IMG/VR virus record: IMGVR_UViG_3300009370_000001
Direction: 5' to 3' (one strand)
Length of the DNA: 64,000 nucleotides
Source of the DNA: a virus
Lineage: Duplodnaviria > Caudoviricetes
In this document: positions 9,704 through 60,509 of the stretch, piece by piece
Position numbering within the stretch: position 1 is the stretch's first letter
Layout: each line of letters starts with the position of its first letter
The notes under the pieces: generated by a model
Seen by the model: only the letters and a program-made list of their open reading frames with translations
What the model was told of the DNA's origin: nothing
Database searches by the model: none
Program-made: the position numbers and the translations under genes

Positions 9704-10675
9704 ATGTCTTTTGATAAGTGGCGTGAGTTTTTAGCGGAAGCTCCCCGGCGCGGTAGTCCTGCCGGGATACGGCGCTCTCTAAATACCCTGTTAAACACAG
9801 GACCACATAGCGATGGAAGTCCGTATAAAGATGAAGATGAGCATCTCAAAGGAAAAAAGAATCGCAATCAAATATCCGCGCCACCGGGTGCGCCGGGTGG
9901 GGGCAGCATTGGTGCATCGGGCCCTGCGTTAGAAGAAGAGGTGGAAGAAGAAACCTTTGAGATGCAGCCGGAACTTCAGCCGGAGATTTGGATAGATAAT
10001 CAGATATGGCCTGAAGTACGCAAACGCTTTTTAGAAATCGTGGAAGATTTTCTAGACGGCCTAGACCTTAATGTTCCAATTGAAGACGTGCGACTAACGG
10101 GATCGCTAGCGAACTATAACTGGTCTAAGTATTCGGATGCCGATCTGCATATCGTTGTAGACTTTAGCGAAATAGATGAAGATATTGAGCTAGTCAAAGC
10201 TTTTTTCGACGCAGCCCGGGCCCGATGGAACGACCACCATCAGATTAATGTTTATGGGTTTGAAGTGGAACTATACGTAGAAAACGTCGGGGATATTCAT
10301 CATTCATCTGGTGTGTATTCGGTCGACCAGAACAAATGGATTATTGAGCCTACTCCGCGAGATGTAGAAATTGATTTTATTACTGCTCGCAAGAAAAGCG
10401 ATGATATTGAAACGCAAGTGAACTTAGTAGAACGTATATTGCGTAATGGAAACACGCAAAGCGCCCTCAAGATTATAGAGCGCATTAAACACAAAATCCG
10501 TCGTATGCGACAAGCGGGACTGGATAGCCCCCAAAGAGAATTTTCACCAGAGAACATAGCTTTTAAAATATTGCGTCGTAACGGAACTTTAGAGCGGTTA
10601 AGCGGGCTGAAGCGCAATGCATACGACACCCAAATGTCACTCCCCGAGGAAGTCGATGAAGTTTCAAGCGATTAA
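9704..10675 (+). CDS. Pol-beta superfamily nucleotidyltransferase with N-terminal leader
   Basis: LTGSLANYNWSKYSDADLHIVVDF (GS...DxD) and VELYVE; N-terminus MSFDKWREFLAE. Confidence 0.85.
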   Translation: MSFDKWREFLAEAPRRGSPAGIRRSLNTLLNTGPHSDGSPYKDEDEHLKGKKNRNQISAPPGAPGGGSIGASGPALEEEVEEETFEMQPELQPEIWIDNQIWPEVRKRFLEIVEDFLDGLDLNVPIEDVRLTGSLANYNWSKYSDADLHIVVDFSEIDEDIELVKAFFDAARARWNDHHQINVYGFEVELYVENVGDIHHSSGVYSVDQNKWIIEPTPRDVEIDFITARKKSDDIETQVNLVERILRNGNTQSALKIIERIKHKIRRMRQAGLDSPQREFSPENIAFKILRRNGTLERLSGLKRNAYDTQMSLPEEVDEVSSD

Positions 10676-14562: not shown

Positions 14563-14622
14563 GAGACTGCTTACAGAGCATAAACAGTAAAGCTGGACGC
14601 TCAAAACATTAACCCCTATCCT

Positions 14623-14698: not shown

Positions 14699-14705
14699 TT
14701 TTTTT

Positions 14706-14915: not shown

Positions 14916-15139
14916 TGTTACCAGAGATTGACTGGCTTGAACACCAAATAGCGCAACTGCGAGAGCGGTGCGATCAGCTTGAGAAAGAAAACTTTGAGCT
15001 TAAGCGATGCATTGGCCGAGCTATCACAAACCTGGAACGAGATAATCAGCAGACCCGAGAATACATTGAGAAAGAAGAAACGAAAATCGTAGCGTTCGCC
15101 CCCAACTTCAAGAAGCCGAAGTGGGAAACGCAAGATTAA
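14915..15139 (+). CDS. Hypothetical coiled-coil protein
   Basis: TAATG-coupled ORF. Confidence 0.6.
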   Translation: MLPEIDWLEHQIAQLRERCDQLEKENFELKRCIGRAITNLERDNQQTREYIEKEETKIVAFAPNFKKPKWETQD

Positions 15140-15150
15140 CCTTTCAATTT

Positions 15151-15226
15151 GGGTCCATAGCTCAATAGGTAGAGCATCGGACTTTTAATCCGCAGGTCGT
15201 GGGTTCGATTCCCACTGGACCCACCA
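15151..15226 (+). tRNA. tRNA-Lys(TTT)
   Basis: Acceptor GGGTCCA/TGGACCC, loop CT-TTT-AA, T-loop TTCGATT, CCA; 76 nt. Confidence 0.95.
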
Positions 15227-22846: not shown

Positions 22847-23935
22847 ATGTCAGTAGACTTCAAGACCTTTCAAACCGTAGTAGCTCATATCCTCGATTAC
22901 AAGTTTCCCGTGCTGGTGCGCGGTAGGCATGGCGTCGGCAAATCCGAGGTAGTGTATCAGATTGCTGCTGATCGCAACCTTCCGATTGTCGAGCGTCGTG
23001 CAAGCCAGATGACAGAGGGTGACTTGCTTGGTCTTCCCGATACCTGTGACACCGCTATCAGTGGGCGCAAGGCTACCACGTGGAACGCTCCAGATTGGCT
23101 TGTGACGGCTTGTGAGCAACCCGTGGTACTCTTCCTCGATGAAGTGGACCGGGCAACGATGGAAGTCCGTCAGGGACTCTTTGAGTTGACCGACAGTCGC
23201 AAGATCAACGGCTGGAAGCTGCACCCCGAAACCCTCATTGTCGCCGCTGTCAACGGTGGCGAGCATGGCGCACAATATCAGGTAGGAGAAATGGACCCTG
23301 CCGAGTTGGATCGCTGGACCGTGTTCGATGTCGAGCCTTCCGTAGAAGACTGGCTCACCTGGGGCAAGGACAATGTTAATGAAGTGCTGTGGGACTTCGT
23401 GAACCACAACCGTCAACACCTTGAGCATCAGGGCGAGCATGAGCCGAACAAAGTTTATCCTTCTCGCCGTAGCTGGAAGCGGTTTAATGATACCGCTGTT
23501 CCCACTGGCGCGTTTACCGAGGATGGACAGAACGGCGAGTTGCTGTATCAGCTTGCAACCGCCTTTGTCGGCTTTGAAGCCGCTGTAGCACTTAAGGACT
23601 TCGTTGAGAAGTATGAGTGGCAAGTGACGGTAGAGGATCTGCTTGACAACGGACAGATCGAGCGCACCGAGAAGTGGGGCATCAATGACCATGCTGCGAT
23701 GATCGAGAAGCTGGACGCCTCCGGTGTCCTGGCTGAAACGCTCAACGAGACACAGGTTAGTAACCTTGCCACCTATTTCGTCTCGCTGCCCTCGGAAGTG
23801 GCCATGAAGTTGTGGACCGTCCTGGGAGACACCGACAACATTGAAAATGTCGTAGCACTCCACAAGGCAGAATCGGCCTCTGGACAGAAGGTTAGTGAAC
23901 ACCTTGTGGAAATCCTGGGAGGCTCCCAGGAGTGA
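22847..23935 (+). CDS. MoxR/dynein-related AAA+ ATPase
   Basis: Walker A GRHGVGKS, Walker B VLFLDEVDRA, AAVN sensor, MDPAELDRW. Confidence 0.92.
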   Translation: MSVDFKTFQTVVAHILDYKFPVLVRGRHGVGKSEVVYQIAADRNLPIVERRASQMTEGDLLGLPDTCDTAISGRKATTWNAPDWLVTACEQPVVLFLDEVDRATMEVRQGLFELTDSRKINGWKLHPETLIVAAVNGGEHGAQYQVGEMDPAELDRWTVFDVEPSVEDWLTWGKDNVNEVLWDFVNHNRQHLEHQGEHEPNKVYPSRRSWKRFNDTAVPTGAFTEDGQNGELLYQLATAFVGFEAAVALKDFVEKYEWQVTVEDLLDNGQIERTEKWGINDHAAMIEKLDASGVLAETLNETQVSNLATYFVSLPSEVAMKLWTVLGDTDNIENVVALHKAESASGQKVSEHLVEILGGSQE

Positions 23936-24141
23936 GGATCTTGAAGGCTGGCGACCTACTAATCAGGGAGCGCGATAAGCGCCCCTGTATCGTCTTGGAG
24001 GTCCAAGAGAGTACGAAACCCCAGTGGGGCACCCTGGACGCCAGCAGACGGCGATACAGGCTCTTTGAGAGCCATTCTGGAGTGTCCCGCTGGGTAGTCG
24101 ATACCGAGGTTGCCGTCAAATACACCCTAACAACCGATTGA
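23932..24141 (+). CDS. xGDLV-family small protein
   Basis: LKAGDLLI...CIVLEV; stop in TTGACA. Confidence 0.65.
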   Translation: MRILKAGDLLIRERDKRPCIVLEVQESTKPQWGTLDASRRRYRLFESHSGVSRWVVDTEVAVKYTLTTD

Positions 24142-24192
24142 CATTCACTTGACAACTTTTCCCTGGACAAACCTACGTACCCATGCTATATT
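24138..24192 (+). promoter_or_regulatory. Triple-box early-promoter element
   Basis: TTGACA 24138, TTGACA 24149, TGGACA 24164, 17 nt, TGC-TATATT 24187. Confidence 0.85.
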
Positions 24193-24217
24193 GTATGTGT
24201 AGAAAGGAAAGAACCCT

Positions 24218-25474
24218 ATGAGCGACGACAAACCCACTCCCTTTGACTTGAACAAGCACACGGCGCGGCTGCTTATGCGCGAGCCGTTTTTCGCTGGGCT
24301 GTCTCGGCGGATCGACAAGACCCCGACGACTGAGATCCCGACTGCCGGTGTTCGCATTAATCCCGAACGGGCACAGTTTGAGTTGATGTATAACCCTGAC
24401 TTCATGGCGAGCCTTAGCGACAAGCACCGACTTGCGATCTTGAAGCATGAGTTTTACCATATCATCTTTGAGCATGTGACACACCGCAAGCCTGCCGATG
24501 GCATTAGCCGCCTGGACAACATTGCGATGGATCTGGCAATCAACGGCTTGCCCGACATGAAGACTAACCTTCCCAACGATGCCGAGCCAGGACCACCGAC
24601 CGGATCGGCTGGTGAGCCCATGAAGGCATGCATCCCCGGAGAAGGGCCATTCGCTCACTTGCCTTGTGAGAAGTCCTATGAGTGGTACAAGGCAGCACTC
24701 CAAGACATGCAGAAAGAGAAGCCAGAAGGCGAGCCAGGGGAGCCAGGACAAGGCGAGCCCGGTGATGGCGATCCCTTCGGCGGCATGGATGCGCTGGACG
24801 ATCACGGCGAGTTTGGCGAGGGTCAAGGCACCGCAGACGAGATCGCTAAGGAACGTCTGAAGGAAGCGGTAAAGCAGGCAGCAGAGGAAGCCGAGAAGGC
24901 TAATAACTGGGGCACTGTTTCAGGAAACACCCGGCGCGACATTATGGATCGCATCGCTACTAAGGTTGACTGGCGCAAGGTGTTGCGTTATTTCGTGAAG
25001 ACCACGCAACGCTCCGACAAGACCAGCACGCCGAGGAAACTGAACCGCAGATTTCCACGCATCCACGCAGGAAAGCGCGTCCGTCGTCACGCTCGCATTG
25101 CTATCAGCATCGACCAGTCTGGATCGGTGGATGATAAAATGCTTCAAGCGTTCTTCTCCGAGTTGAACAAGTTGGCCGAGATTGCCGAGTTTACTGTTAT
25201 CCCATTCGATTCAGTAGTGGGCGAGGATAAGATTTATGTATGGAAGAAGGGTGCAACCCGCAGAACCGAGCGCGTTATGTGCGGCGGGACTTGCTTTAAT
25301 GCTCCAACCAAGTACGTGAACGAACACGGATTCGATGGACATATTATCCTTACTGACCTGATGGCACCTAAGCCGATGGCGAGCAAGTGTCAACGCATGT
25401 GGATGACGACTAAGGCATACGCGGCGCGTCCCTACTTCCAGACTAACGAGCGAGTCATCGCAATCGACAGTTGA
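24218..25474 (+). CDS. DUF2201-type metallopeptidase + vWA-like domain protein
   Basis: IPTAGV, ILKHEFYH (HExxH), NIAMDLAIN, SIDQSGSV (MIDAS), GGTCF, ILTDL. Confidence 0.88.
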   Translation: MSDDKPTPFDLNKHTARLLMREPFFAGLSRRIDKTPTTEIPTAGVRINPERAQFELMYNPDFMASLSDKHRLAILKHEFYHIIFEHVTHRKPADGISRLDNIAMDLAINGLPDMKTNLPNDAEPGPPTGSAGEPMKACIPGEGPFAHLPCEKSYEWYKAALQDMQKEKPEGEPGEPGQGEPGDGDPFGGMDALDDHGEFGEGQGTADEIAKERLKEAVKQAAEEAEKANNWGTVSGNTRRDIMDRIATKVDWRKVLRYFVKTTQRSDKTSTPRKLNRRFPRIHAGKRVRRHARIAISIDQSGSVDDKMLQAFFSELNKLAEIAEFTVIPFDSVVGEDKIYVWKKGATRRTERVMCGGTCFNAPTKYVNEHGFDGHIILTDLMAPKPMASKCQRMWMTTKAYAARPYFQTNERVIAIDS

Positions 25475-34232: not shown

Positions 34233-34961
34233 ATGAAATTTTTAAGTATAGTACTCGGCGCGCTGTTAGTAAGTCCCACTCACGCCACCGAAATCATTAA
34301 AACCCACGATACTGACACCCGGACAATTGAGATAAGTTCGCAGATGTCTGACACTGAAATGGCCGTGCGGGGTGCCGCAGTGCGAGTAACGAGATTTGGA
34401 GAAGGCGGCCATGGCTCGGGTTCCCTGGTGCAGTATAAGGACGTCCAACTTGTTTTGACAGCCCAGCATGTAGCTGACGCCATTATTGGTACACCTTATC
34501 GTATTACCCATGATGGTGAAATACGCGAAGGTATTTTAATATATTCAAATGAGGCACACGATATTGCAGTTTTATGGGTACAAGTGCCATGGCCACGTGG
34601 ACACGCACTAAAGTGGGATCCCACCACAGAAGTTGCTGAGGTGGGATCAAAAATAACTTATTCGGGCTTTCCCGGGCCACATAGTTTGATGACTTATCGT
34701 GGCCGTGTTGCGGGTTATGAGTTAATGCCTGATGGCTCTACTAACATTTTACTCCACACTTATGGATATTTTGGATGTTCAGGCGCCGTAATTTACAACG
34801 CAGACAAAGAAATTGTAGGAATCCTATGGGGAATCGATAGAGGGCGTATTGCCCCTATAGAAGATATGATATGGGTATCTCCGATACAGAATTTAAATAT
34901 TGATTTATCATTGCGAGGATTGTGTCAGACATTACGTAATGAACCACGCGCATGCCGATGA
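34233..34961 (+). CDS. Secreted trypsin-like serine protease
   Basis: Signal peptide; VLTAQHVA, HDIAVL, YFGCSGAVIY. Confidence 0.85.
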   Translation: MKFLSIVLGALLVSPTHATEIIKTHDTDTRTIEISSQMSDTEMAVRGAAVRVTRFGEGGHGSGSLVQYKDVQLVLTAQHVADAIIGTPYRITHDGEIREGILIYSNEAHDIAVLWVQVPWPRGHALKWDPTTEVAEVGSKITYSGFPGPHSLMTYRGRVAGYELMPDGSTNILLHTYGYFGCSGAVIYNADKEIVGILWGIDRGRIAPIEDMIWVSPIQNLNIDLSLRGLCQTLRNEPRACR

Positions 34962-35413
34962 AATATTCATGGAAAGGCTTTCTTGGCGAAGGCAAAGAAT
35001 CAGAAGTTGGAATTGTTGCTTGTCTAAACGATGAGCAACAATTTCTTATTTTAAGACGTTCAGAGATGGATGATCGAGCAGGGCAATGGACAATGCCGGG
35101 AGGACATATTGATCCAGAAGACAGTTCTATAGAAGCCGGCACACTTCGAGAATTGAACGAGGAAGCTAATTTAACGTGTAAAATTAGTAATTTAATGTAT
35201 TTGGGCTCTCCAAAAAAGAAAAAATACTATTTTTTGGCTCTTAAGTGGTCGGGAGAAGTAAGTGTAGATAAGCCAAATCCAAAAACTGACGAAATTGAAC
35301 ACGATGACTACAAATGGGCAACAATTAATGAGATAAAAGACATTGACGATACTAATATTCCGATCTATTTACTGGAGAAAGCTTTAGAAATCCAAAAGGA
35401 AGGTGAAGAATGA
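34958..35413 (+). CDS. NUDIX hydrolase with leader-like N-terminus
   Basis: PGGHIDPEDSSIEAGTLRELNEE Nudix box; N-terminus MKYSWKGFLGE. Confidence 0.9.
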   Translation: MKYSWKGFLGEGKESEVGIVACLNDEQQFLILRRSEMDDRAGQWTMPGGHIDPEDSSIEAGTLRELNEEANLTCKISNLMYLGSPKKKKYYFLALKWSGEVSVDKPNPKTDEIEHDDYKWATINEIKDIDDTNIPIYLLEKALEIQKEGEE

Positions 35414-35761: not shown

Positions 35762-36256
35762 ATGAAACTTATAATGGAAAATTGGCGGCGTTATTTAACA
35801 GAACAAGAAGCTTCTTGGGGAGACTGGACAATTGAAGAACTCGAAGACTTAATTAAAAATGCTCGTGAAGAAGAGAATGTACAAGCCAAAAAATGGCTTG
35901 GGAAAACAATGGGTATTGAATTTATAAAACTCATTCCTGTTCTTGGTCACGCATTAACTGGAGGTGAGGTCTTGAGCGGTCTTTATAAGAAGCACAAGCG
36001 ATCTGAGGCAGAATCCGATGATAATCCTGAAGATTTTCCAATTTTAGATATTTTAGACGTCGATCCTTATCTTATTCAAACACTCGATCAAGAAATTTTA
36101 AATAGTATTGATGAAGAATATGAAAAATATTTACATGGCTTGCCGGCCGGAACGCGCATAAAAGACATCACCGATATTAATGATTTTATTCGAGGAATCG
36201 TTGCGCGCCAAACGAAGAAGCATGTTACCATTGTTGATCAAAGCGGAGAAGGTTAA
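35762..36256 (+). CDS. Leader-bearing hypothetical protein
   Basis: MKLIMENWRRYLTE. Confidence 0.75.
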   Translation: MKLIMENWRRYLTEQEASWGDWTIEELEDLIKNAREEENVQAKKWLGKTMGIEFIKLIPVLGHALTGGEVLSGLYKKHKRSEAESDDNPEDFPILDILDVDPYLIQTLDQEILNSIDEEYEKYLHGLPAGTRIKDITDINDFIRGIVARQTKKHVTIVDQSGEG

Positions 36257-38856
36257 TGATCAAGGTCCGTATTGGAAAAAAGAAATCGCATTGCGGCGAA
36301 GCCAAGAAAATAGGCTTTGGTCAGGGCACACCTCCAAAAGGTGAATGGTATAAGAAGCAAGAGATCGTCGTTGAAGACACAAAACTCCTCCGCGAACTCA
36401 CTGAAGACGAGCTTGAGCGCGCGCTAGCTGCCGTCGAGGAAATCGATCCCGACGAATTGGCTTTTAACCAAATCTTTGGCGATAAAAAGCGCCTCGTTAT
36501 TGATTTTCCTGTCGCTAATTTAGATTCAGAAGCGGGACGCTTCATTAACATGTGGGGCGATCTGGATGATGTGGAGACCGGCAGCGGCTATAGCGCCGAT
36601 TGGCAAAAAGGAATTATCTCAGGACTGCGCACTATCAAAGATGAAAGTCTTGTTGGTGTGCCTGCCGAGATAGAGCGCGCCGCGTTTGGTTTCGGTGGCG
36701 AGAAAGAAAAAGGCCCGAAACAGAAGAAAGTCCAAATGAAAATTGGAAAATTCTTTGCCAAAATACACGATTTAGCCACAAAGCGTCAAGAGATTATTCA
36801 ACTATATTGGAAAAAGCACCACGAAAAGCATTTTAAAGGCGACCGACCTTATAGAGGGGGCCAAGCAAACTTTTCTCACATTCCAGTCGGAGAGATCCGA
36901 GACCTAATTGGAGACGAAAAAGTGGAGCGTTACGATCAACTGACCAATCAGCTTAAAATGTATTTAGGCACCAAAGGAATGACCCGATTTGCCCAATTTC
37001 CAGACACCGCCCTCCGCGCTGGCGAATACTGGCAGAAAAACGCAGGTTTTATTAAGAAAAACATCGACGGGATGACTAACGATAAATACGCCATCGTTAT
37101 TACGCGTGATCCAGTCGATATGTTTCGCATGAGCGACTTCAATCAAATTACTTCATGCCACTCTCCACCATCAAGACCTTCGGAATCGGGCAATTCATAT
37201 TATAAATGCGCGGTTGCTGAGGCTATGGGTCACGGAGCAGTCGCCTATGTAGTCGACAAGACCGATTTGCTGGCTGCTGCTGACGCTGAGGCGCTTCCAG
37301 AAGCAGAAGACAATATCCAGGAAGGAGAACTTTTTGCGGACGAGACACGGGGCTCTCACGTCGGTTATGAAATGGATCTGGTTCCGCTCTCGCGCATTCG
37401 TTTGCGTCAGTATCGCTATTACGACAGCACCGCTCTAGCAACTGACGCAGCAGACTATGCAAAACCTAGCATTGAAGGCGGCACACAACTGGCTGTGCCT
37501 GAAATTGGAACCACACCATATGGTCTTAATATCCCAGGCTTCCTTGAACGCTTAGAAGGCTGGGCGAGAGAAAACCAGCAAGAGGCCATGACCCAAGTAC
37601 CCAAGACGAGCAAAGGTAAAATAGAGTCGGGAGCCTTTGTACTTTATGGAGGAGCTTATGAAGAAGCTAGAACGAGCGGAGGCATGGGCCGCCGCAAAAT
37701 GCTTGCAAGCTTTTTTGAAGTGCGCTTTGATGAAATGACAGGCGAGCCTCGACAAGACACGTCGACGGAACGCAAACTGCCAAAAGATATTGGAAAAGGA
37801 ATAATTGAGTTTACTGAAGAAGCAGTCGCACGAGTTGCGATGCAATGGAATGACTCTTGGCATCGGAGTTCACCCGGAACTGCCGAACACCCAGGCATGC
37901 AGGTCTTCGCCCGAGTAGAAGACATGGGACAAAACGAGGATGGCGGATATGATTTTGCTATCGAGGGATCCGCAGTGATGCGTGTATTTTGGGATGCCGA
38001 TGAGTGGGAGAGGCTACCAAGAGCCGATGAGACAGATTGGATAGATCGCGAGGTTGCAGAATATGGCTTTGGCTTTGTTCAGGATTTAGTGGTCATTAGG
38101 CGTGGAGATATGATATATGCTAAATTCGATATTAACAATAATGGGGTTTATAATCTCTATCATTACGGTACGTCTATCGAAGTTGATTTAGTACATACTG
38201 GGGTAACTCACTCGCCAGACGGCTTCGAAGAATATTGTCTGGAAATTAACAAGATAGATGATGTTCGAGAAGGACTCAAGGCTGTTCTCTCCACCTTTTT
38301 TAAACGCCAAGGCTGGCTTCAAGGGGGCGCCTACATGCAGTTAGCCATGGATATTGAAAACGACGAACTGACCTCTTATGAATGGGATCTCCGAACAGAC
38401 GGAGAATATGAAGACTCCTATGAAGCCACCGCCACCGTTACACATGACTTTGATCCCGAAGAGTTAAATATCAATCCTGAAGTGTTATTGGGGATTCTTG
38501 AAGACCGGGAATTTAGATTGCTGGTACGCACTCAATTCTTGCATGCGTTGCAGAAAACGACAGGCATAGACTTTCAGTTGGATATCGTGCCCGAGAAAGT
38601 AACGAATATTGGTGGGACGCTGCGGTTTCCATTTACTTTTCAAGTTACAGCCGATGACCCCACTGAACGTGTAGAATTATTTCGCGCTCTCGTTGAAGAG
38701 ATCGACGACGAAGATGATATTGCGGCGCGCTTCGAGAAAGCGATGGCTCACGCACTAAACAACATGAAGCCCGTAGCGTATCGACAGAATTTGGACGAGA
38801 ACAAAAAATATGATGCCGATTGGGCACTAAAAAGATGGAAACAAAATTTTAACTAA
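36256..38856 (+). CDS. 866-aa hypothetical protein, probable virion component
   Basis: Long ORF; LLRE/LTE motifs near the N-terminus; ITRDPVDMFRMSDF...SCHS...CAVAE block. Confidence 0.75.
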   Translation: MIKVRIGKKKSHCGEAKKIGFGQGTPPKGEWYKKQEIVVEDTKLLRELTEDELERALAAVEEIDPDELAFNQIFGDKKRLVIDFPVANLDSEAGRFINMWGDLDDVETGSGYSADWQKGIISGLRTIKDESLVGVPAEIERAAFGFGGEKEKGPKQKKVQMKIGKFFAKIHDLATKRQEIIQLYWKKHHEKHFKGDRPYRGGQANFSHIPVGEIRDLIGDEKVERYDQLTNQLKMYLGTKGMTRFAQFPDTALRAGEYWQKNAGFIKKNIDGMTNDKYAIVITRDPVDMFRMSDFNQITSCHSPPSRPSESGNSYYKCAVAEAMGHGAVAYVVDKTDLLAAADAEALPEAEDNIQEGELFADETRGSHVGYEMDLVPLSRIRLRQYRYYDSTALATDAADYAKPSIEGGTQLAVPEIGTTPYGLNIPGFLERLEGWARENQQEAMTQVPKTSKGKIESGAFVLYGGAYEEARTSGGMGRRKMLASFFEVRFDEMTGEPRQDTSTERKLPKDIGKGIIEFTEEAVARVAMQWNDSWHRSSPGTAEHPGMQVFARVEDMGQNEDGGYDFAIEGSAVMRVFWDADEWERLPRADETDWIDREVAEYGFGFVQDLVVIRRGDMIYAKFDINNNGVYNLYHYGTSIEVDLVHTGVTHSPDGFEEYCLEINKIDDVREGLKAVLSTFFKRQGWLQGGAYMQLAMDIENDELTSYEWDLRTDGEYEDSYEATATVTHDFDPEELNINPEVLLGILEDREFRLLVRTQFLHALQKTTGIDFQLDIVPEKVTNIGGTLRFPFTFQVTADDPTERVELFRALVEEIDDEDDIAARFEKAMAHALNNMKPVAYRQNLDENKKYDADWALKRWKQNFN

Positions 38857-38867: not shown

Positions 38868-39518
38868 ATGAGAAAGAGATTAATCGAAGCATGTGCATTT
38901 ATGCTTTTGTTAGTAGCATGCACAACGTTAGTGTTTGGTATTGCAGGATGCAAGCCCAAGTTAACTACCGACGATAGCACAACCCCACCTATCCCCCAGG
39001 TAGATGATTCTGCTATTACAATTTCCCCCACCGATAGCGATGATCGCTCTTGGGTAACTTGGGAGACTTGTTCACAAAAACCAGGAGATCATCCCTGTGA
39101 TTTTGAATTGATGGATCAGCATGGAGATATGGTGAGTCTATACGATTATCACGGAAAGGTTATTGTAATTGATCTGTCAACAATTTGGTGTGGGGTGTGT
39201 AACAACATCGCACAAGAAGGTGATGAGTGGCTCAATGATTATGGTGCGGAAAACTTTATCTGGCTAACTATCTTAATTGATAATGCTACAGGCGATCCTC
39301 CCACATTAGCTGATATCCAGCATTGGGCTACGGTATACGGCATCGAAGTGCCTGTGCTAGTAGGCGACCGAAGCTTAGTAGATCTAACCGCTGAAACGGG
39401 TTATCCGTGCACCGGTTGGCCAACACTAGTTGTAATCGACCGAGAGATGGTTTTACAATACGGTATTAATGGATGGAATGAAACAACCATTCGTGGGTGG
39501 GTGCAAAGTCTGTTATGA
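38868..39518 (+). CDS. Thioredoxin-fold (TlpA/AhpC-TSA-like) lipoprotein
   Basis: Lipobox GIAGC; DFELMDQHG, STIWCGVC (CxxC), GWPTLVVID. Confidence 0.88.
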   Translation: MRKRLIEACAFMLLLVACTTLVFGIAGCKPKLTTDDSTTPPIPQVDDSAITISPTDSDDRSWVTWETCSQKPGDHPCDFELMDQHGDMVSLYDYHGKVIVIDLSTIWCGVCNNIAQEGDEWLNDYGAENFIWLTILIDNATGDPPTLADIQHWATVYGIEVPVLVGDRSLVDLTAETGYPCTGWPTLVVIDREMVLQYGINGWNETTIRGWVQSLL

Positions 39519-40084
39519 TGTCCTTGTTGCTACTCTTGGGGTGCACCAACGCGCCTGTCATCGTAGTGCAAGAGACAACTACGCATGAAGAACGCCAACT
39601 CCATAAAGTATCAGAGACTATTGATGCTTCGTTCTTTAATCGTGGCCCACAAAGTCAAGGAGGATGGCAGGGCACCCCCGACATCCGTGTGTGCACCACC
39701 GCACCCATTTCTCAGCGGAGAGTAGAAAAAGGACTTGACTTTTGGCGAGAACTAGGTTATAGTTTTGGTAGGATATATTATAATGATGTATCGAGACATT
39801 GTATTGAAGATATATTTTCATATAATACAATAATCATTGATTTGATTGACGGAACACACAGAGAGCCAGCGCTCGCCACCACAACGTCGTGGATTGACCG
39901 AGAAACCCGAGAGATTTTGAAAGCCAAAATTGCGCTTAAAAATACATGGGGCGAAGCCGACCGAATTCTAGAACACGAGCTTGGGCATGCGCTAGGCTGG
40001 CTCGACTATAATCAAACTGGTCATATTATGCACCACGAATGGAGTCGAGGAGGACTAAATACCATGGGAGTGGAAGTCCAATGA
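39515..40084 (+). CDS. Matrixin/metzincin-like metalloprotease lipoprotein
   Basis: Lipobox LLLGC; HELGHALGWLD (HExxHxxGxxD) followed by the Met-turn HIM. Confidence 0.8.
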   Translation: MMSLLLLLGCTNAPVIVVQETTTHEERQLHKVSETIDASFFNRGPQSQGGWQGTPDIRVCTTAPISQRRVEKGLDFWRELGYSFGRIYYNDVSRHCIEDIFSYNTIIIDLIDGTHREPALATTTSWIDRETREILKAKIALKNTWGEADRILEHELGHALGWLDYNQTGHIMHHEWSRGGLNTMGVEVQ

Positions 40085-40710
40085 AACTTTTAATGGAAAA
40101 TTGGCGAGAGTTTTTGAATGAGACCTCACCTCCTTTTGAAGAGATTCAATCTATTATTGATCAAAATCCTTATTTAAAAGGCAAAGTTAGTGCAACTGAG
40201 GAGACAGTCTACGATATGGGGGATAAATATCTCCTGATGTCGGGGGTTTCCCACATAGCCGAGCGCCACCAAGATAAATGTTTTCCAGGCTCTCTTTTTC
40301 TCCAAGATGAGGAAGTGATAAAGAAAGCAATTCTCAATATTGTAGCCCAAATGCCCCCTGCGGAAGGAAAAGCGCTAGCTATGCCTTCGGGGATTTCTGG
40401 ACTTGGAATGGAGAGATTAGTCAAAACAACACCTGAAGAAGTCGCCGGACTTGAAGATTACACGATGAATGATGGTACAATTGTTAAAATTAAACGCGAA
40501 GGCAATAATCCCGGGCAAGTAACCGATAAATTAACAGTTATTGCTCCCTCTATTGGCAACATAGGTGGAAAGCCTCTACTTTCTCTAATAACTGCGTTTC
40601 CGGGTTTCATGGGAACTGGGCGCGGCGGTGACGGAGATATTGAGATCCTTGACCGCAGCGATTTTACAAAAAATGGATATTATTTTTTAATCCCAGAGGA
40701 TTGTAAATGA
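40081..40710 (+). CDS. Leader-bearing protein with RNase-toxin-like motifs
   Basis: MKLLMENWREFLNE; GVSHIAERH...GSLF and C-terminal LITAFP. Confidence 0.55.
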   Translation: MKLLMENWREFLNETSPPFEEIQSIIDQNPYLKGKVSATEETVYDMGDKYLLMSGVSHIAERHQDKCFPGSLFLQDEEVIKKAILNIVAQMPPAEGKALAMPSGISGLGMERLVKTTPEEVAGLEDYTMNDGTIVKIKREGNNPGQVTDKLTVIAPSIGNIGGKPLLSLITAFPGFMGTGRGGDGDIEILDRSDFTKNGYYFLIPEDCK

Positions 40711-41153
40711 AACTCCTACTTGAAAATTGGCGGAAGTATTTGACGGAGACAATCGGATTAGACGATAATCCTGATTTATCACAAGACGGCTTTGAAACGG
40801 CAAAATTGCCTATTCCCTTAGAATTTAGATATGCAGAAACAGACGAGACCATTGAAACAAAAGAAGGTCCAGTAAACGCAACCGCCGGCGATGCTATCAT
40901 GACCGGCACTGAAGGTGAACAATGGCCGATCCCCGCAGAGAAATTTGCAGAGACTTATGATGATTTAGGCGACGGAACAGCCGCAAAGAAAAACATTCCT
41001 GTTTTTGCTAAAGAAATGGCTGAGCCCTTCCAAGTTAAAGTATCATGGTCAGATGATTTATTACAAGGCGAAGCAGGAGACTATTTAGTTCAATACGGCG
41101 TGGGTGACTACGGCGTTGTGGGCAGAGAAATATTTGGAAAAACATATAAATGA
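40707..41153 (+). CDS. Leader-bearing PGDYG-family protein
   Basis: MKLLLENWRKYLTE; TKEGPVNATAGDAIMTGTEGEQWPI...FAETY; AGDYLV. Confidence 0.8.
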   Translation: MKLLLENWRKYLTETIGLDDNPDLSQDGFETAKLPIPLEFRYAETDETIETKEGPVNATAGDAIMTGTEGEQWPIPAEKFAETYDDLGDGTAAKKNIPVFAKEMAEPFQVKVSWSDDLLQGEAGDYLVQYGVGDYGVVGREIFGKTYK

Positions 41154-41878
41154 AACTCCTACTTGAAAATTGGCGAGAGTTCATAAATGAAAACCAAGAA
41201 GGATCTGGGCTGCTTTACCACGCCACCTTGTCTGGTGAGAATAACAGCATTGTTCGTTCATTTATTGATAACGGGATCGATCCAACGCGCGCTGGGGGCT
41301 TTGGTCAAGGTGGAGGCTTCTATCTTTGGACCGATATAAAGGATGCCCATCATTATATTAAAGGCTTGGTTTACGGCATGAAGGGCGCTTCGAAAGAGGA
41401 GGAGGTCGAAGGCAAGCCCATTATAGTAGTGGTTGACGAACCAGTTACTCCTCAAAACTTTGATATTGATTATGAACTGTATGCTAAGGGGCTTATTGGT
41501 TTTATCGAAGGTAACCTTGATTACTTTAAACAAAATGGTGAAGCCCTAGGTATTATAACAAAAAAGCTTGACAGTCATTTGAGTGTTGATAAAAAAGCAC
41601 TTGGCCTCCAGGGCGGGAGGAAGACTGTTGCTCGATGGGATTCTCGCGCTTCGTGGGATAGTGACATACATGGAGAAGACTACGGAATTGATATTGGCAC
41701 TGGTGAACTGTTGGGAATGGTGGCATCTAAACTTCATGAATTGGACCCCACAAAATATGAAGAGTTTGAGAAGCAGGCTCTCCCGCCTGCCCGGGCTTTA
41801 AAATACAATGGCGAAACAAAGATTTGGCCATTACGCATTGAAGATGCCGAAGGCAATGTTCTGTGGAGCAGAGAATGA
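41150..41878 (+). CDS. Leader-bearing ADP-ribosyltransferase-fold protein (H-Y-x clade)
   Basis: MKLLLENWREFINE; LYHAT...NGID...GFGQGGGFYLWTDIKDAHHY. Confidence 0.65.
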   Translation: MKLLLENWREFINENQEGSGLLYHATLSGENNSIVRSFIDNGIDPTRAGGFGQGGGFYLWTDIKDAHHYIKGLVYGMKGASKEEEVEGKPIIVVVDEPVTPQNFDIDYELYAKGLIGFIEGNLDYFKQNGEALGIITKKLDSHLSVDKKALGLQGGRKTVARWDSRASWDSDIHGEDYGIDIGTGELLGMVASKLHELDPTKYEEFEKQALPPARALKYNGETKIWPLRIEDAEGNVLWSRE

Positions 41879-42501
41879 AACTCCTACTTGAAAATTGGCG
41901 GAAGTTTTTAAACGAGAAAAAATGGGAAGACTTTGATCATCCCAAGAATCAATGGGCCGATGTTTCACCCAGTGATATCAAAGCCGCACAACATCCGATT
42001 AATGTAGACTTATCTGATGAATTATATGATCTGATTGATGTTGCATATGCTGCCATAGGAGGCAATTTTGATTTTGCTAACTCTGGCGATCTTCCTGGCG
42101 ATCATGATCAGTGGGGAGCTATTGACATCGATGATGATCCGGAACCAGATGCACTTCGTGTTTCCAAAACAAAGCCGGCCGGCTCAAAGATGACTGTCGC
42201 AGGTCATGACGGGTCCAAGTCTGGAAAAGATGCCTATATTAGCAGGACTGCCGAATTATTATCACAACCGGGACACTATGCGGAAATGTCCAAGAAAATT
42301 GCGGATATTATGATAAAATATTATGATATCCCGGCGGTCACCGACCCCGAAAAAGTACAGCAAGTATTGGGTCCTAATAAGTCTATCAAATGGCTCGGAC
42401 CCCACCCAGAAGGAAAGCATCCTGGCATTGACGGCTGGTATACGAGAGACATCGGTCCCAATAAAGATATTCTCAAGATTATGCTTGGGAATCCAAAATG
42501 A
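41875..42501 (+). CDS. Leader-bearing conserved phage hypothetical protein
   Basis: MKLLLENWRKFLNE; LIDVAYAAIGG, IDIDDDPEPDA, GHDGS blocks. Confidence 0.75.
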   Translation: MKLLLENWRKFLNEKKWEDFDHPKNQWADVSPSDIKAAQHPINVDLSDELYDLIDVAYAAIGGNFDFANSGDLPGDHDQWGAIDIDDDPEPDALRVSKTKPAGSKMTVAGHDGSKSGKDAYISRTAELLSQPGHYAEMSKKIADIMIKYYDIPAVTDPEKVQQVLGPNKSIKWLGPHPEGKHPGIDGWYTRDIGPNKDILKIMLGNPK

Positions 42502-42947
42502 AAATTCTATTTTTACACGGACTTGAATCAACCCCAGGCGGAAGAAAGCCCACGACCATCTCAGATGCTGGCTACGAAGTGATTGAGCCAATTCTTCCTG
42601 CGAACAGTTGGAACGATAGTATCAGCGCAGCCCAAGAGGCATATGATGAAGAACAACCAGATATCATAGTTGGTTCGTCCCGGGGAGGAGCAGTTGCTAT
42701 GGCCGCTAATCTTCCTGCACGTAAAATGATTTTAATTGCGCCGGCGTGGAAAAAGTATTGCCCTGGTTGTACTATTGCTCCCAATACAATTATTCTTCAT
42801 TCGCCTGATGACGAGGTAATAGCCTTTGCAGACAGCAGACTATTGTCGAAGATGTTCGGCGCCGAACTAGTTATAGCGGGCGATGACCACCGCATGAATG
42901 ATAGCGGAGCATTGGCTAAGATGATGCAGGCAATAGATAACTCATGA
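42498..42947 (+). CDS. YqiA/UPF0227-like alpha/beta hydrolase (esterase)
   Basis: LFLHGLES, VGSSRGG nucleophile elbow, HSPDDEVI (Asp), GDDHRM (His). Confidence 0.88.
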   Translation: MKILFLHGLESTPGGRKPTTISDAGYEVIEPILPANSWNDSISAAQEAYDEEQPDIIVGSSRGGAVAMAANLPARKMILIAPAWKKYCPGCTIAPNTIILHSPDDEVIAFADSRLLSKMFGAELVIAGDDHRMNDSGALAKMMQAIDNS

Positions 42948-42979
42948 AACTCCTACTTGAAAATTGGCGAGGGCTATAA
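42944..42979 (+). pseudogene. Orphan leader stub MKLLLENWRGL*
   Basis: Identical leader DNA truncated by TAA, immediately followed in frame by ATG 42980. Confidence 0.8.
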
Positions 42980-44425
42980 ATGGCAATAACTCTAGAATAT
43001 ATGAGGCGTAAACAAAAACAACTGGAAAGAAAAATGCGGCGCGAAGCTGAATTGGAAGCTGAAAAAGAGGCAGAACGAGTTGCTGAGATAGAGGCCGAAC
43101 TTCGCGAACAGGAAGAAATTGCTGCAAGGGCGCGCCTTCTTGTGGAACAACAGGAAGATAAGCGCCTTCATCAGAGGTATCTTAAAAGAAAGCAAAAAAT
43201 AGCAGATCAAAAATGGGATAACCAGTTTGACGCTTTAATGACTCAGATAAAAAATCAAACCCAAAAGGATAATAAGCTTGAAGAAATAAGGTTTATAATC
43301 CAAAATCGCGAACCCTCTCTTCAACAGCTTGATTGGGATACGTGGTTATCCGTTCCTTTCAATCAAAGGCTCGCTGAATTGGATTTTGAGCGGGCGATGG
43401 AAATGTTTAAGCGCGATAATCTAATGTCTGCACGGCGTAAGAAAACGCGCGGGAAGTCTCCCAAGATCGATGCTGCTGTTAATTATGCATTATCATTCAC
43501 TGGCAATGATGCAGTAGGCGCCCGCGCAGATTTGGTCGCAACATCGTTTACTCCTAATGATCCTACAAATAAAGGCTTTTCAAGTTCTGACAGAAAACCA
43601 CTTGCAGAATCAGGATTTACTATATCATTTTGGTGGAGACCAGACCAAAACTATCAGGATTCATTTCCTATTGGCTGGAAAAGAGATACACATGCCAGAT
43701 TTGACTTTGGAATAAGAAATGCATCAAAACCATGGTTTGGTTTAGGCAGTTCAGAATTAAAAGGCGTAACTTGGGAAACTATGTTTGATGATTCAGGTAA
43801 TTCAGATTTAAAAAACACATTATTGGATAGTGGCGAAGGAACAGACCCCGGCTCTGGTAATCATTTAATACTGGGTAAATGGTATCATCTTGTAGCAACA
43901 TATGCAGGTACTGATAATCCTGATGGTGATGGTTACATGCTCCGTAAAATATATTTAAATGGATATCACATATATGGGGGATTTGGTGAAGCAAAGCAAT
44001 CTGTGAACTGGACGAGCCACACTGGCGCTCAGATGGCCCGGGGTTTAGCTTTTGGTATGCGCGTAGTAGTAGCTTCAGGAACGGACTCAGAATCAGGACT
44101 AAGAAATGCTAAATATAACAACGGAAACGCATGTGGGCTTGATGAAATAGCTATTTATAGTGAAGCCAAAGATGCCGATTGGGTTACGAATGTATATAAT
44201 GGTGGTGTGGATTACAATCATAAAGATTCGGGCGGCGATGGTCTTGTAGGATATTGGAGACTTAATGAAGGTAATGGAAATACTGTTAAAGATTTATCAG
44301 GATATGGTTGGCACGGAACATTCACTAATGCTTCATACGGAACAAAGATTGATGCCGCTATAGCCGATCTACCACCTTCAGGAACACCAACTTGGATCAA
44401 GGTACCAACAGGATACGGTCAATAA
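42980..44425 (+). CDS. Coiled-coil + LamG/concanavalin-A-like domain protein
   Basis: E/R/K-rich N-terminus; FTISFW, WYHLVATY, IYLNG, GLDEIAIY, LVGYWRLNEGNGNTVKDLSG. Confidence 0.85.
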   Translation: MAITLEYMRRKQKQLERKMRREAELEAEKEAERVAEIEAELREQEEIAARARLLVEQQEDKRLHQRYLKRKQKIADQKWDNQFDALMTQIKNQTQKDNKLEEIRFIIQNREPSLQQLDWDTWLSVPFNQRLAELDFERAMEMFKRDNLMSARRKKTRGKSPKIDAAVNYALSFTGNDAVGARADLVATSFTPNDPTNKGFSSSDRKPLAESGFTISFWWRPDQNYQDSFPIGWKRDTHARFDFGIRNASKPWFGLGSSELKGVTWETMFDDSGNSDLKNTLLDSGEGTDPGSGNHLILGKWYHLVATYAGTDNPDGDGYMLRKIYLNGYHIYGGFGEAKQSVNWTSHTGAQMARGLAFGMRVVVASGTDSESGLRNAKYNNGNACGLDEIAIYSEAKDADWVTNVYNGGVDYNHKDSGGDGLVGYWRLNEGNGNTVKDLSGYGWHGTFTNASYGTKIDAAIADLPPSGTPTWIKVPTGYGQ

Positions 44426-45009
44426 TGAAACTCCTACTTGAAAATTGGCGACGATTTTTAAATGAGGAGCAGGAGTACGAGATTTACTGTGACATGGATG
44501 GTGTGCTTGTAGACTTCGAATTAGGGGCCGTAGAGCACATCACAAGCGACTTAAAAAGCGGAAAGGCTTCCGAGCTAGAGGAAGAGCTTGGACGCGATTA
44601 TATCACCGCTGAGGATATTAGGTCAAATAAGTCCGTTAGAAATTATATGTACAAAGAATTAGAACATAACGCAGAATTTTGGGAGAACTTGCCTTGGATA
44701 GAAAATGGTCCCGAATTGTGGGCCGCAATTGCTCCATATAATCCGAATATATTAACAACCCCTATGGGATATGGATCCGAAATTGGCAAACAAGCTTGGA
44801 TTGATAAAAACTTAAGCCCCCTCCCCCAACAAGTTTTTATGTCGAGAGATAAATATCGCTGGGCCGATAAAAATAGTATTTTGATCGATGATTGGACAAA
44901 AAACACCATTCCTTGGGAAGAACACGGCGGCATAGCTATTTTACATCGAGATTCAGACATAGAAAAAACACTGTCAACACTGCAGGAACTCGGACTGCAA
45001 ACTAATTAA
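44425..45009 (+). CDS. Leader-bearing HAD-family 5'(3')-deoxyribonucleotidase-like protein
   Basis: MKLLLENWRRFLNE; IYCDMDGVLVDF, FWENLPW, ILTTP, GKQAW, ILIDD. Confidence 0.88.
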   Translation: MKLLLENWRRFLNEEQEYEIYCDMDGVLVDFELGAVEHITSDLKSGKASELEEELGRDYITAEDIRSNKSVRNYMYKELEHNAEFWENLPWIENGPELWAAIAPYNPNILTTPMGYGSEIGKQAWIDKNLSPLPQQVFMSRDKYRWADKNSILIDDWTKNTIPWEEHGGIAILHRDSDIEKTLSTLQELGLQTN

Positions 45010-45033: not shown

Positions 45034-45351
45034 ATGGCTGATGGAGAATCTTGGGATCAATATTCCCGACTAGTTTTACAACAACTAGAAACACTTTCAA
45101 ATGGCATTGAAGCTTTGCGTGGAGAGCTTCAAGATGTCAAAAACCAACTCACAGAATTAAAAGCAAAAGAGGATCGGGTACAAGACTTAAAAGATTGGAA
45201 AGAGAAGATTGACGAGGTCGCGTCTCCTTCTCAGCTACAAAATGCGCTACAAGAAATAGAAGATTTAAAGACCTTTAAGACAAAAGCGGTCACTATTTTT
45301 GCTGTAGTGCAGTTTTTGATGGCTGCAGCAATAGCTTTATCTAGGATATAG
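45034..45351 (+). CDS. Coiled-coil protein with C-terminal TM helix (holin/XhlA-like architecture)
   Basis: Heptad-rich body; terminal AVTIFAVVQFLMAAAIAL. Confidence 0.6.
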   Translation: MADGESWDQYSRLVLQQLETLSNGIEALRGELQDVKNQLTELKAKEDRVQDLKDWKEKIDEVASPSQLQNALQEIEDLKTFKTKAVTIFAVVQFLMAAAIALSRI

Positions 45352-50217: not shown

Positions 50218-51035
50218 AAGCTGAGCAAGAGCAAATCTTAAGAGAGAATATAAGACAGTTAATTGAAGTTGTCAAGCAAAAAAGAAGTACAGTCCAAGAA
50301 ACACTGTTATTAGAAGAAGAACGCCTCCGCGGGATCGTTAGAGACTTAATTGATGTTGAACTCCAATCGCTCCGCGAGGATACTACCCCTGACAACGACC
50401 CGGTGCCCAATAAGTCTACTGGCATTAACGTTCTCGAAGATCTTTTGAAGAAAATTATTCCTGTCCTAGAGACTGATTATAAATTACTTACTACCGATGC
50501 CGAACAGCGCCAATCATTCCGCGCGCATGTTATTAATGCTGTAGTTGATGCCTTAACACCTGCTGAAGTTAATAATGAGGCTGGTGAGGAGGTTGCTGCA
50601 GCGGATGCACTAGAAGAAGAAGTAGATATAGCTATTGGCGATGAAGATAAGTTTATCGATATTCGAACTGATGCAGAAAAAAGTGCTGATGATGAAGAAG
50701 TCGAAGAGGACCCCCGCGATGGTTTTGGCGTCGCCGGCGAAGATGAAACTGGACGCAATGTAGCTTATAATGCCTTTAAAAAGATTCAAACTTCAATTAT
50801 TGATTCTTATGAATTATTATCTAATCCTGAAGACCAAGAATTGTTTTATGATTATTTGATCGCCAATCTTAAATTGTATTTTGATAAATTCGAAGGCGAA
50901 TTGGCGCCAGACGTAGAAGAGCCCACAAATCAAGCCTATGACGATGCTAAGAGCGAAGAAGGCGATATGGGCGCGCCAGATGACACTGAGATGGATTTCG
51001 GTGGTGATGAAGAAGAGATAGAATTAGAATTATGA
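50214..51035 (+). CDS. Acidic hypothetical protein, possible virion/scaffold-like
   Basis: LRENIRQLIE motifs; ACTATTTA 20 nt upstream. Confidence 0.7.
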   Translation: MKAEQEQILRENIRQLIEVVKQKRSTVQETLLLEEERLRGIVRDLIDVELQSLREDTTPDNDPVPNKSTGINVLEDLLKKIIPVLETDYKLLTTDAEQRQSFRAHVINAVVDALTPAEVNNEAGEEVAAADALEEEVDIAIGDEDKFIDIRTDAEKSADDEEVEEDPRDGFGVAGEDETGRNVAYNAFKKIQTSIIDSYELLSNPEDQELFYDYLIANLKLYFDKFEGELAPDVEEPTNQAYDDAKSEEGDMGAPDDTEMDFGGDEEEIELEL

Positions 51036-51796
51036 AAATTTTAATGGAGAATTGGCGCCAATTTATAGAACATGGCGCGTCGACACCTGAGAATGGAAAA
51101 ATATATCTTTTCGAAGATGAAAAGATCACAGAAGCATCTTTTAGCATAAGATTAAATCTATTAACAGAATCCACCACAGAGATAGAAGGCTTTTTGCGAG
51201 AATGGGAGACGTCTGCCGATTATGTGTTAAGCAAGAATGTTCTTAATGAGGGCGTAATGGATTTAGTTTCTCAGGCGGCTGCAGTGTTGAAAACACTCGC
51301 AGAGAAATCTTGGGATACGGTCACAAGTGTCACTTCAAAAGTTTTAAATTTTATTGAGAAATTTAAAGAAAAACACCCCAAAATATATAGCGCCCTCAAA
51401 TGGGCCTGTATAGCAATAATATGTATAGCGGCACTTTATCTAATAGCCAAAGCCACAGGAATGACAGCTGTTGTCCAAGCTATGGAATCACTTGCTACAT
51501 TCCAATGGCCCGATGTAGCAATTTCTGAATTGGTAAGAGATCTAACCAACCAACAGACAGTAGATGCTCTTCGAAACCTACAAGACGCATTATTAAATCG
51601 AGCAGGAGACATAGGAGTAGATCTGGTGCAAAGTGATCATCAAATCCTTCAGGATCTAGGAGATAAAATCTTAGATTCTATTCCATCGGAGCAGTCGGCT
51701 GAAGCAGTATCGGATTTCTGGGGTCAGGCGATGGAACGGTTACAGCAAGGCGCCCAGGCCGGCACGGGACAAATTGAGACCTTCACTCCAAATTAG
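51032..51796 (+). CDS. Leader-bearing protein with internal TM segment
   Basis: MKILMENWRQFIE; LLTE and VLNE motifs; WACIAIICIAALYLIA. Confidence 0.75.
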   Translation: MKILMENWRQFIEHGASTPENGKIYLFEDEKITEASFSIRLNLLTESTTEIEGFLREWETSADYVLSKNVLNEGVMDLVSQAAAVLKTLAEKSWDTVTSVTSKVLNFIEKFKEKHPKIYSALKWACIAIICIAALYLIAKATGMTAVVQAMESLATFQWPDVAISELVRDLTNQQTVDALRNLQDALLNRAGDIGVDLVQSDHQILQDLGDKILDSIPSEQSAEAVSDFWGQAMERLQQGAQAGTGQIETFTPN

Positions 51797-52176: not shown

Positions 52177-52402
52177 ATATAACGGACACTATATCATGGG
52201 CGACTTGGTCGGCTCACACAAAACAGAAGCTGCCGCCATGAAAAAAGCAAAGAAAGAAATAAAATTTAAATTTTCTGTGAGAGAAAAGAAAAAGAACGAG
52301 ATACTTATTTGGCTTGATGGTGAAAACCACGAACCACTAGGAGTTATCACACACGAATTAAAGGGGACGAAACGGCCTCGACAGGGTAAGGAGAAAGGAT
52401 AG
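52160..52402 (+). CDS. Hypothetical basic protein; 3' end overlaps the tmRNA
   Basis: MWKVYKYNG...; last 40 nt lie within the tmRNA 5' end. Confidence 0.6.
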   Translation: MWKVYKYNGHYIMGDLVGSHKTEAAAMKKAKKEIKFKFSVREKKKNEILIWLDGENHEPLGVITHELKGTKRPRQGKEKG

Positions 52403-52784
52403 TGCAAGTAGTCAAACGTACCAGCAGACTTTAAATGCAGATACAAAACATAATTGCTAATAATAATAACAATTTCGAATCTGTCCGCTTAGCGGCTTAA
52501 TCGGGTGGTTACCTAAAGCCATCAATCCAATTTAGGTATTTATCGCAACAGGATGGTAAGCGATATCTTATAGCCATCTATCTTTTTGTTAGTTTCTGAT
52601 AGCAAACTGACGCATCGATTGGAAAGGGTGAGGGTTTAGCTTGTCAGTCGATTAATCACCCCGCTTTTGTTGATTTTCACATAGCGGATGCCGGCCGTCA
52701 GACCGGTAAAAATCAACTAAACTTGTGAATGACTTGAATTTTAATATGCTTTGGACGCGGGTTCGACTCCCGCCGTCTCCACCA
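52363..52784 (+). ncRNA. ssrA: tmRNA
   Basis: 5' GGGGACGAAACGGCCTCGAC; 3' GGACGCGGGTTCGACTCCCGCCGTCTCCACCA; acceptor GGGGACG/CGTCTCC with G3-U; tag ANNNNNFESVRLAA* at 52456-52500. Confidence 0.96.
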
Positions 52785-60433: not shown

Positions 60434-60509
60434 TGGGGTGTAGTTCAATCGGCAGAACGTCTGACTGTTAATCAGAAAGTTGCAGGTTCGAGTCCTGCTG
60501 CCCCAGCCA
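60434..60509 (+). tRNA. tRNA-Asn(GTT)
   Basis: Acceptor TGGGGTG/TGCCCCA, anticodon stem TCTGA/TCAGA, loop CT-GTT-AA, T-loop TTCGAGT, CCA; 76 nt. Confidence 0.95.

Follow-up and report, generated by a model that had tools for sequence, protein, structure and literature searches.

Unrelated cargo genes behind one short leader resembling the T4 capsid targeting sequence in an exchangeable array of an uncultured marine T4-like phage

Why should a row of phage genes encoding unrelated proteins begin with the same 26 nucleotides? The question is raised by IMG/VR record IMGVR_UViG_3300009370_000001, a virus of the Caudoviricetes (Duplodnaviria), of which we analysed a stretch of 64,000 nucleotides (hereafter, the window). 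Between positions 40081 and 45009, a common leader encodes the N-terminal tag of one protein after another, each continuing into a cargo unlike those of its neighbours. We consider it fairly probable, at about 60%, that the tag is a capsid-targeting propeptide, removed by a protease, that loads a changeable set of enzymes into the phage head. This reading rests on the logic of the motif and on the co-occurrence of the leader with a prohead protease.

The exact 26-mer, ATGAAACTCCTACTTGAAAATTGGCG, was found by pattern search at 40707, 41150, 41875, 42944 and 44425 and in none of 100 shuffles, while the gene at 40081 starts with a variant differing by five changes. An earlier note on this DNA had reported identity over 26 nucleotides at these five positions, which is correct, although the 26-mer typed there was one base off. 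Six-frame translation also returned the starts MKLL(L/M)ENWR(K/E/R)(F/Y)(L/I)(N/T)E that it had described at five genes, and the overlaps it had seen between each leader and the preceding stop codon are there as well: ATGA at 40081, 40707, 41150, 41875 and 42944, and TAATG at 44425. All window genes lie on a single strand (+). The array opens with the leader variant MKLLMENWREFLNE, followed by a 195-aa cargo weakly resembling RNase toxins (40081..40710), and proceeds with exact leaders joined to a PGDYG-domain cargo (40707..41153), an ADP-ribosyltransferase (ART)-like cargo (41150..41878) and a cargo of unassigned fold belonging to a cluster of 11 members (41875..42501). Two genes within 40081-45009 do not bear the tag: one without leader, encoding a 149-aa alpha/beta-hydrolase-like product with weak Pfam matches under the cut-offs (42498..42947), and one encoding a 481-aa coiled-coil and LamG protein (42980..44425; Pfam Laminin_G_3, 5.7e-7). 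The ATG of the latter lies immediately 3′ of the leader copy at 42944..42979, an 11-codon stub without cargo (MKLLLENWRGL*) that consists of the exact 26-mer, two further codons and a stop. The last exact leader heads a cargo of the HAD-type 5'-3' deoxyribonucleotidase class (44425..45009).

A logo computed from 245 unique leader copies gave the consensus M-K-L-L-[LFM]-E-N-W-R-x-[YF]-[LIV]-x-E, in which the tryptophan at position 8 is invariant (245/245), followed by [YF]11 (231/245), [LIV]12 (226/245) and E14 (209/245). Conservation ends sharply at Glu14, with a column entropy of 1.1 bits at that residue and of 3.5-4.1 bits from residue 15 onward. A scan with a degenerate pattern retrieved many copies with different codons and conservative substitutions, indicating that selection acts on the peptide. 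Even the homologues of a single cargo, that of the 40081 type, differ in their tags, with MRLLFEKWNKFLNE and MNNLFENWRRYIKE as examples. In AF2 models of two cargos, residues 2-14 form a separate helix of low confidence with a linker behind it; in one homologue, 35 further residues are inserted between tag and domain. Outside the strict leader genes, 120 of 130 occurrences of the core W-x-x-[YF]-[LIVM]-x-E fall within the first 45 residues of the protein; this core heads the NUDIX gene that flanks the array, a conserved 83-aa protein and distant homologues of a protein of about 800 aa encoded beside it. Short-form tags devoid of the MKLLLEN part retain W-x-x-[FY]-[LI]-x-E. The charge of the peptide rules out a signal peptide or a lipobox. 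A looser search of the window found four more tagged genes outside 40081-45009. Two carry the short form, namely a 323-aa gene at 9704..10675 (MSFDKWREFLAE; PHROG family of unassigned function) and the NUDIX gene at 34952 (MPMKYSWKGFLGE). The others are a leader gene at 35762..36256 (MKLIMENWRRYLTE), whose 164-aa product has a cargo domain without assigned function, and a divergent leader gene of 254 aa at 51032..51796 (MKILMENWRQFIEH).

The nearest known peptide is the capsid targeting sequence (CTS) of phage T4, MKTYQEFIAE, in which residues 4 and 7 serve targeting and residues 8 and 10 serve processing, cleavage by gp21 taking place after L/I-x-E (PMC9026906). W8, [YF]11, [LIV]12 and E14 reproduce the spacing of these mapped residues (i, i+3, i+4, i+6). 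Both peptides start with M-K, contain an aromatic pair three residues apart and end in I/L-x-E; M1, K2 and E6 are common to the two, in peptides that are too short for statistics. The CTS spans 10 residues, whereas the tag described here spans 14 with its extra MKLLLEN part, a short form of 10-12 residues also being present. The earlier note's proposal of a T4-CTS-like leader is thus supported by the spacing and by the terminal gp21 motif [LI]-x-E, but not as a new idea: tagged hypervariable internal-protein loci are already known from T-even phages, according to the passages that cite Repoila 1994 in PMC2839356, PMC3012670 and PMC12373910.

The parallel with T4 extends beyond the peptide. In both systems a short N-terminal tag is common to otherwise unrelated proteins, the phage is T4-like with genes for a gp21-type protease and a gp23-type capsid protein, and the tagged genes occupy non-essential, variable loci distant from the head genes (PMC9026906, PMC3012670, PMC12373910). 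One cargo here is ART-like, and T4 Alt is a packaged ART (PMC9026906). The two systems differ in their cargos, which in T4 are small basic inhibitors and here are mostly enzyme-sized, with a median of about 195 aa and a maximum of 837. They also differ in diversity, about 30 internal proteins being known from T-even phages against at least 140 cargo families from a small sample here, and in arrangement, as the genes studied here, known from sequence alone, form one translationally coupled operon array.

The diversity of the cargos was assessed on 428 leader open reading frames (ORFs) in 209 IMG/VR loci. The 343 unique complete proteins among them fell into 140 cargo clusters without mutual BLAST similarity, and about 110 of the 140 cluster representatives have no Pfam domain. 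Those identified include NUDIX, two protein kinases, poly(A)/CCA polymerase, a Zeta-toxin-type kinase, RNase T, tRNA-ligase CPD, ART-PolyVal, a papain-like toxin domain and a transglutaminase-like domain. The claim that unrelated folds stand behind one tag therefore holds, both in the different Pfam families and folds and in the number of unrelated clusters. This bears directly on the possibility that the array consists of ordinary tandem-duplication paralogues that have retained only their N-termini. Tandem order and a common start are what such a history would leave, but it is contradicted by cargos from unrelated Pfam families and folds, by the lack of BLAST similarity between the clusters and by one cargo family found with different leaders. 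We regard this explanation as extremely improbable.

The individual cargos of the window agree with this diversity. Two assignments made earlier were recovered by profile searches, namely the PGDYG domain at 40707 (Pfam, 2e-18) and the HAD nucleotidase at 44425, a 5'-3' deoxyribonucleotidase (PHROG, 2e-24). For the 41150 cargo, H24 and E109 are invariant and Y58 nearly so among 30 homologues, and every fold match of its structural model is an ADP-ribosyltransferase (Z up to 7.9); it is probably ART-like. The model of the 40081 cargo matched the RNase toxin domains of CdiA-CT, YxiD and MafB at Z of about 5, which weakly suggests an RNase-toxin-like protein. Foldseek searches against the PDB returned no match at E <0.001 for either model, and Pfam, PHROG and atlas searches assigned no family to the 41875 cargo. 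In a near-identical contig (L211, JGI 3300009103), the ART-like gene is split into ORFs of 76 and 166 aa (4070-4797), in what looks like a frameshift allele of the cassette gene in the population.

A prohead protease of the Peptidase_S77 family (T4 gp21) was present in 6/6 leader-bearing IMG/VR genomes at least 90% complete, and a gp23-type capsid protein in 5/5 near-complete leader-bearing genomes searched for it; these near-complete genomes measure 180-200 kb, two of them with terminal repeats. Moreover, the core motif heads the gene directly 3′ of the prohead protease in 3/13 head modules. Looser forms of the motif were seen in two more head-module genes, one directly after the protease (L117) and one before it (L201). 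The genes beside the protease received no annotation from a PHROG scan, so that their identity as scaffold genes follows from position only. In five complete relatives (L223-L227), the gp23-type capsid protein is extended at its N-terminus by about 60-65 residues, among which LTE, LLE and LRE (L-x-E) sites are conserved, and within this extension the segment ALLxKWxxTGLLE resembles the tag, a likeness that we treat as a lead only. Two side observations concern leaders of another type. In a complete relative, G002, the gene that follows the prohead protease (L118 808-1419, −) starts with a second leader type, MKITKLRLRRIIKEEIE, which likewise ends in I-x-E, and the distant homologues of the ART cargo (P0036 and P0037) have leaders ending in [LIV]-x-E, such as MKVIRNLIREILIE, that are similar to it. 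A predicted complex between the G002 protease and residues 1-40 of a G002 leader protein scored 0.00, which speaks for neither side.

The surroundings of the array are those of an exchangeable slot. Its bounds are the NUDIX gene (34952..35413; PHROG NUDIX, 1.5e-14; homologues in 46 loci) and a gene for a 105-aa coiled-coil protein with a C-terminal hydrophobic segment (45034..45351; homologues in 70 loci), each conserved in dozens of loci. In the 24 loci with both flanks, the interval ranges from 3.9 to 10.3 kb and contains differing sets of leader cassettes; only the NUDIX gene, the gene for the protein of about 800 aa and the right-flank gene (gene Y) were kept in 24/24 versions. Cargo swaps among relatives, as envisaged in the earlier note, are therefore visible as one syntenic slot holding different cargo sets. 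We located the ends of alignments between contigs (n=1486 internal) as a measure of where homology breaks. There were 326 ends within -10..+50 of the 428 leader starts, with peaks at 0 and at +25..+42. The 2118 other ORF starts had only 156 ends within that distance, so that leader starts have about 10 times more ends per start. All window cassettes except the ART-like one at 41150, which is a singleton cluster among the fetched loci, have relatives in which homology sets in at the first base of the leader and often runs out within the next leader. The PGDYG cassette, for instance, is about 80% identical over 40705-41191 in four other loci (L046, L088, L056 and L025), whose neighbouring genes differ. 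The mosaic unit thus runs from leader to leader, and crossing-over may take place inside the 26-mer.

These borders, with homology breaking at the leader edges, support the suggestion that the leader is a cassette junction. Homogenisation of the leaders within a genome proved weak across the family. The mean distance over the 26 nucleotides is 3.3 within loci and 3.9 between loci. Two copies from one locus thus resemble each other hardly more than two from different loci, and local gene conversion was rejected as the main cause of leader identity. Slots of variable genes between conserved genes, with a short border repeat at which homology between relatives breaks, are also a feature of the hyperplastic regions of T4-type genomes, both in the internal-protein-locus repeats of Repoila et al. 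1994 and in the promoter-stem-loop (PeSL) cassettes, as described in PMC2839356 and PMC4122927. The PeSL cassettes carry a promoter and a terminator, whereas the border repeat described here is coding and encodes the tag.

Within the slot version of the window, the protein of about 800 aa has 866 residues and is untagged (36256..38856; no Pfam or PHROG match). It is present in every slot version, and its distant homologues start with a short tag such as MKKMNNSWRNFLNE. A pair of untagged genes inside the array (38868-39518 and 39515-40084, +) have lipoprotein-like starts, LVAC and LLGC, respectively. The first product has an AhpC/TSA thioredoxin fold (Pfam, 1e-11) and the second a HELGH zincin-like motif with no family match. 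This pair is unique to the window's version among the 24 syntenic loci.

Several observations weigh against capsid targeting. The protease evidence comes from the genomes of relatives of the window phage. The arrays are distant from the head genes, lying in G002 at about 113-120 and 147-148 kb with the protease at about 17.6 kb; the T4 ip genes are likewise distant from theirs. Cargos of up to 837 aa are far larger than T4 internal proteins. Glu14 is missing in some copies, such as MKLLLENWREYRNM and the window's 51032, and no preference for small residues was seen at the position that follows it. Furthermore, the leader was not found in Flavobacterium phage immuto, and a 46-nt leader query (blastn, E up to 1) produced only chance hits in 50,697 INPHARED records.

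Some of these points suit a different address. The tag could be a recognition peptide for a target other than the prohead core, such as the tail or baseplate lumen, a membrane site, a GroEL-like chaperonin or an enzyme that modifies N-termini. The separation of the arrays from the head genes leaves room for it, and a chaperonin is encoded by the phage itself. It is harder to reconcile with a motif whose spacing equals that of the mapped T4 CTS residues and that ends in the gp21 motif, and with the same motif heading genes that adjoin the prohead protease. Two of the three genes found in 24/24 slots, those for NUDIX and for the protein of about 800 aa, are themselves tagged in some phages, and the charge of the peptide speaks against the export signals already mentioned. 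On balance, another address seems unlikely, at something like one chance in a handful, and we retain capsid targeting as the preferred reading.

Conservation of the leader at the DNA level raises the further question of whether the peptide is the whole of its function. Three codons are much more frequent in the leader than in the cargo bodies: CTC at L3 (46% vs 9%), CTA at L4 (52% vs 12%) and CGA at R9 (53% vs 15%). GAA makes up 96% of the codons at E6 and 79% of the Glu codons at E14, with 69% for Glu in cargo bodies. Even in the best conserved proteins compared, identity between the window phage and G002 reaches only about 56-61%, and the two differ in GC content (44% vs 36%), yet both carry several exact copies of the 26-mer. 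When homologous cassettes are compared, conserved residues have identical codons in 68% of cases for codons 2-9, 61% for codons 10-14 and 46% for the cargo. Exact copies represent 24% of the total in a near-unbiased sample. The DNA constraint beyond the peptide is thus real but partial.

The leader also carries a signal in each of the three frames: its start in frame 1, the stop of ATGA in frame 2 and a TGA at nucleotides 15-17 as stop in frame 3. The upstream gene ends inside the leader at 221/358 junctions (180 at ATGA and 41 at the TGA of nucleotides 15-17). The 11-codon stub before the LamG gene is found in four phage lineages with 77-83% identity; stubs precede the LamG gene in L061, L119/L043 and L094 and other genes in L100/L016 and L024. 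Such features could mean that the 26 nucleotides are primarily a DNA or RNA element, acting in re-initiation or coupling, protein binding or recombination, with the peptide largely a by-product. The rare codons CTC, CTA and CGA, the GAA bias at E6, the excess codon identity over the cargo, exact sharing between phages with core proteins about 60% identical and differing GC, stubs made of the 26-mer only before untagged genes and stops in both other frames would all be explained in this way. However, exact copies are only the minority given above, and the peptide persists through many synonymous variants. At residues 10-14 it is the amino acids that are conserved, the choice of codon being free, and the short tags that have lost MKLLLEN still keep W-x-x-[FY]-[LI]-x-E.

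Searches for a known element of this kind were equally unhelpful to it. Folding of six junctions as RNA showed no shared structure (z-scores from -3.4 to +1.8), and the T4 late-promoter motif TATAAATA was not enriched, with 7 sites against 3.6 expected and none at the array. Scans for sigma-70 promoters and terminators remained at shuffle level. RegA (Pfam PF01818), considered as a protein that might bind the leader RNA, had no match in the 5 complete relatives, nor in any control genome. We therefore judge a primary DNA or RNA role to be rather improbable, more so than another address for the peptide, and such a role is best seen as a second layer over the peptide function.

Under the capsid-targeting reading, each cassette product would begin with an amphipathic helix of 14 residues, this lineage's own version of the T4 CTS, and continue through a short, flexible linker into a cargo domain unrelated to those of the others. 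During prohead assembly, the aromatic pair W8 and Y/F11 would dock the protein on the scaffolding core. The gp21-type protease would then cut after [LIV]12-x-E14, releasing the cargo inside the head, and the cargo would enter the host along with the DNA, where the nucleotidase and the ART-like and RNase-like proteins, among others, could act ahead of any phage gene expression. The cassettes would be exchanged as leader-to-leader units in the hypervariable slot between the NUDIX and coiled-coil genes. The first 26 nucleotides may act as common punctuation: as they open frame 1 with a start and close frames 2 and 3 with stops, a cassette could follow most upstream genes and still be translationally coupled. 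A bolder version, which we advance tentatively and hold to be less probable than its negation, is that the 26 nucleotides are a selected, dual-coded element, at once the start of a head-loading tag and a universal cassette junction, by means of which diverged marine T4-like phages trade ready-to-package effector genes from a pool of hundreds of injected families, much as integrons do with their gene cassettes but with no integrase.

Injected effectors of another build are known as the polyvalent proteins of phages and conjugative elements (Pfam ART-PolyVal and related), which are thought to act at entry. Their repertoire of ARTs, papain-like toxin domains, kinases and nucleases overlaps with the one found here, but they are giant multidomain proteins, whereas the cargos described here are encoded by separate small genes with a common tag. 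Should the capsid-targeting reading be true, the tag would provide a simple sequence handle for listing the proteins injected by abundant uncultured ocean myoviruses, a class that is probably rich in anti-defence and host-takeover enzymes and otherwise invisible in metagenomes. The 209 loci already yield at least 140 cargo families, most of them without a known domain. The T4 CTS principle would be widened from three small inhibitors of a laboratory phage to a large, exchangeable and natural repertoire of enzymes, and there would be a second, natural packaging tag beside the T4 CTS, which is already used for foreign proteins. In addition, the conservation at the nucleotide level and the leader-bounded units make the shuffling of accessory genes directly testable in metagenomic time series.

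The distribution of the leader points to its owners. More than 115 IMG/VR contigs carry the exact 26-mer. In a search of 185,579 prokaryote species genomes, it turned up only in 2 short contigs of metagenome-assembled genomes (L233 and L234), one labelled Woesearchaeota and the other Gammaproteobacteria, both probably mis-binned phage DNA. A 12-kb region had no near match in the 50,697 GenBank phage records of INPHARED, and the leader sequence is not printed in the literature. Among cultured phages the closest is Flavobacterium phage immuto, whose protease is 48% and whose GroEL is 44% identical. Given this distance, the absence of the leader from immuto and its near absence from prokaryotes, we assign it to an uncultured marine branch of the T4-like myoviruses. 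The window phage is itself an uncultured T4-like myovirus of marine origin with a genome of about 200 kb, and a protein identical to one from the window is encoded on a 203.7-kb metagenomic contig (ENA).

The remaining gene content of the window includes a GroEL-like chaperonin, PhoH, a MoxR-type ATPase, a tail-fibre-like protein, four tRNAs and a transfer-messenger RNA (tmRNA). The GroEL-like gene (97-1275, +) has its 5′ end cut by the window edge; the MoxR-type ATPase lies beside a gene for a 418-aa protein annotated as an HNH endonuclease by PHROGs (22847-25474, +), and PhoH is encoded at 62284-63621 (+). These three regions are about 56-61% identical to their counterparts in the complete relative G002. 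The tRNA genes, for Leu(TAA), Ile(TAT), Lys(TTT) and Asn(GTT), are located at 13160-15226 and 60434-60509 (+). The phage-encoded tmRNA (52363-52784, +) matches Rfam RF00023 over its full length with 112.5 bits; its region gives partial alignments to relatives, and its predicted tag peptide is ANNNNNFESVRLAA.

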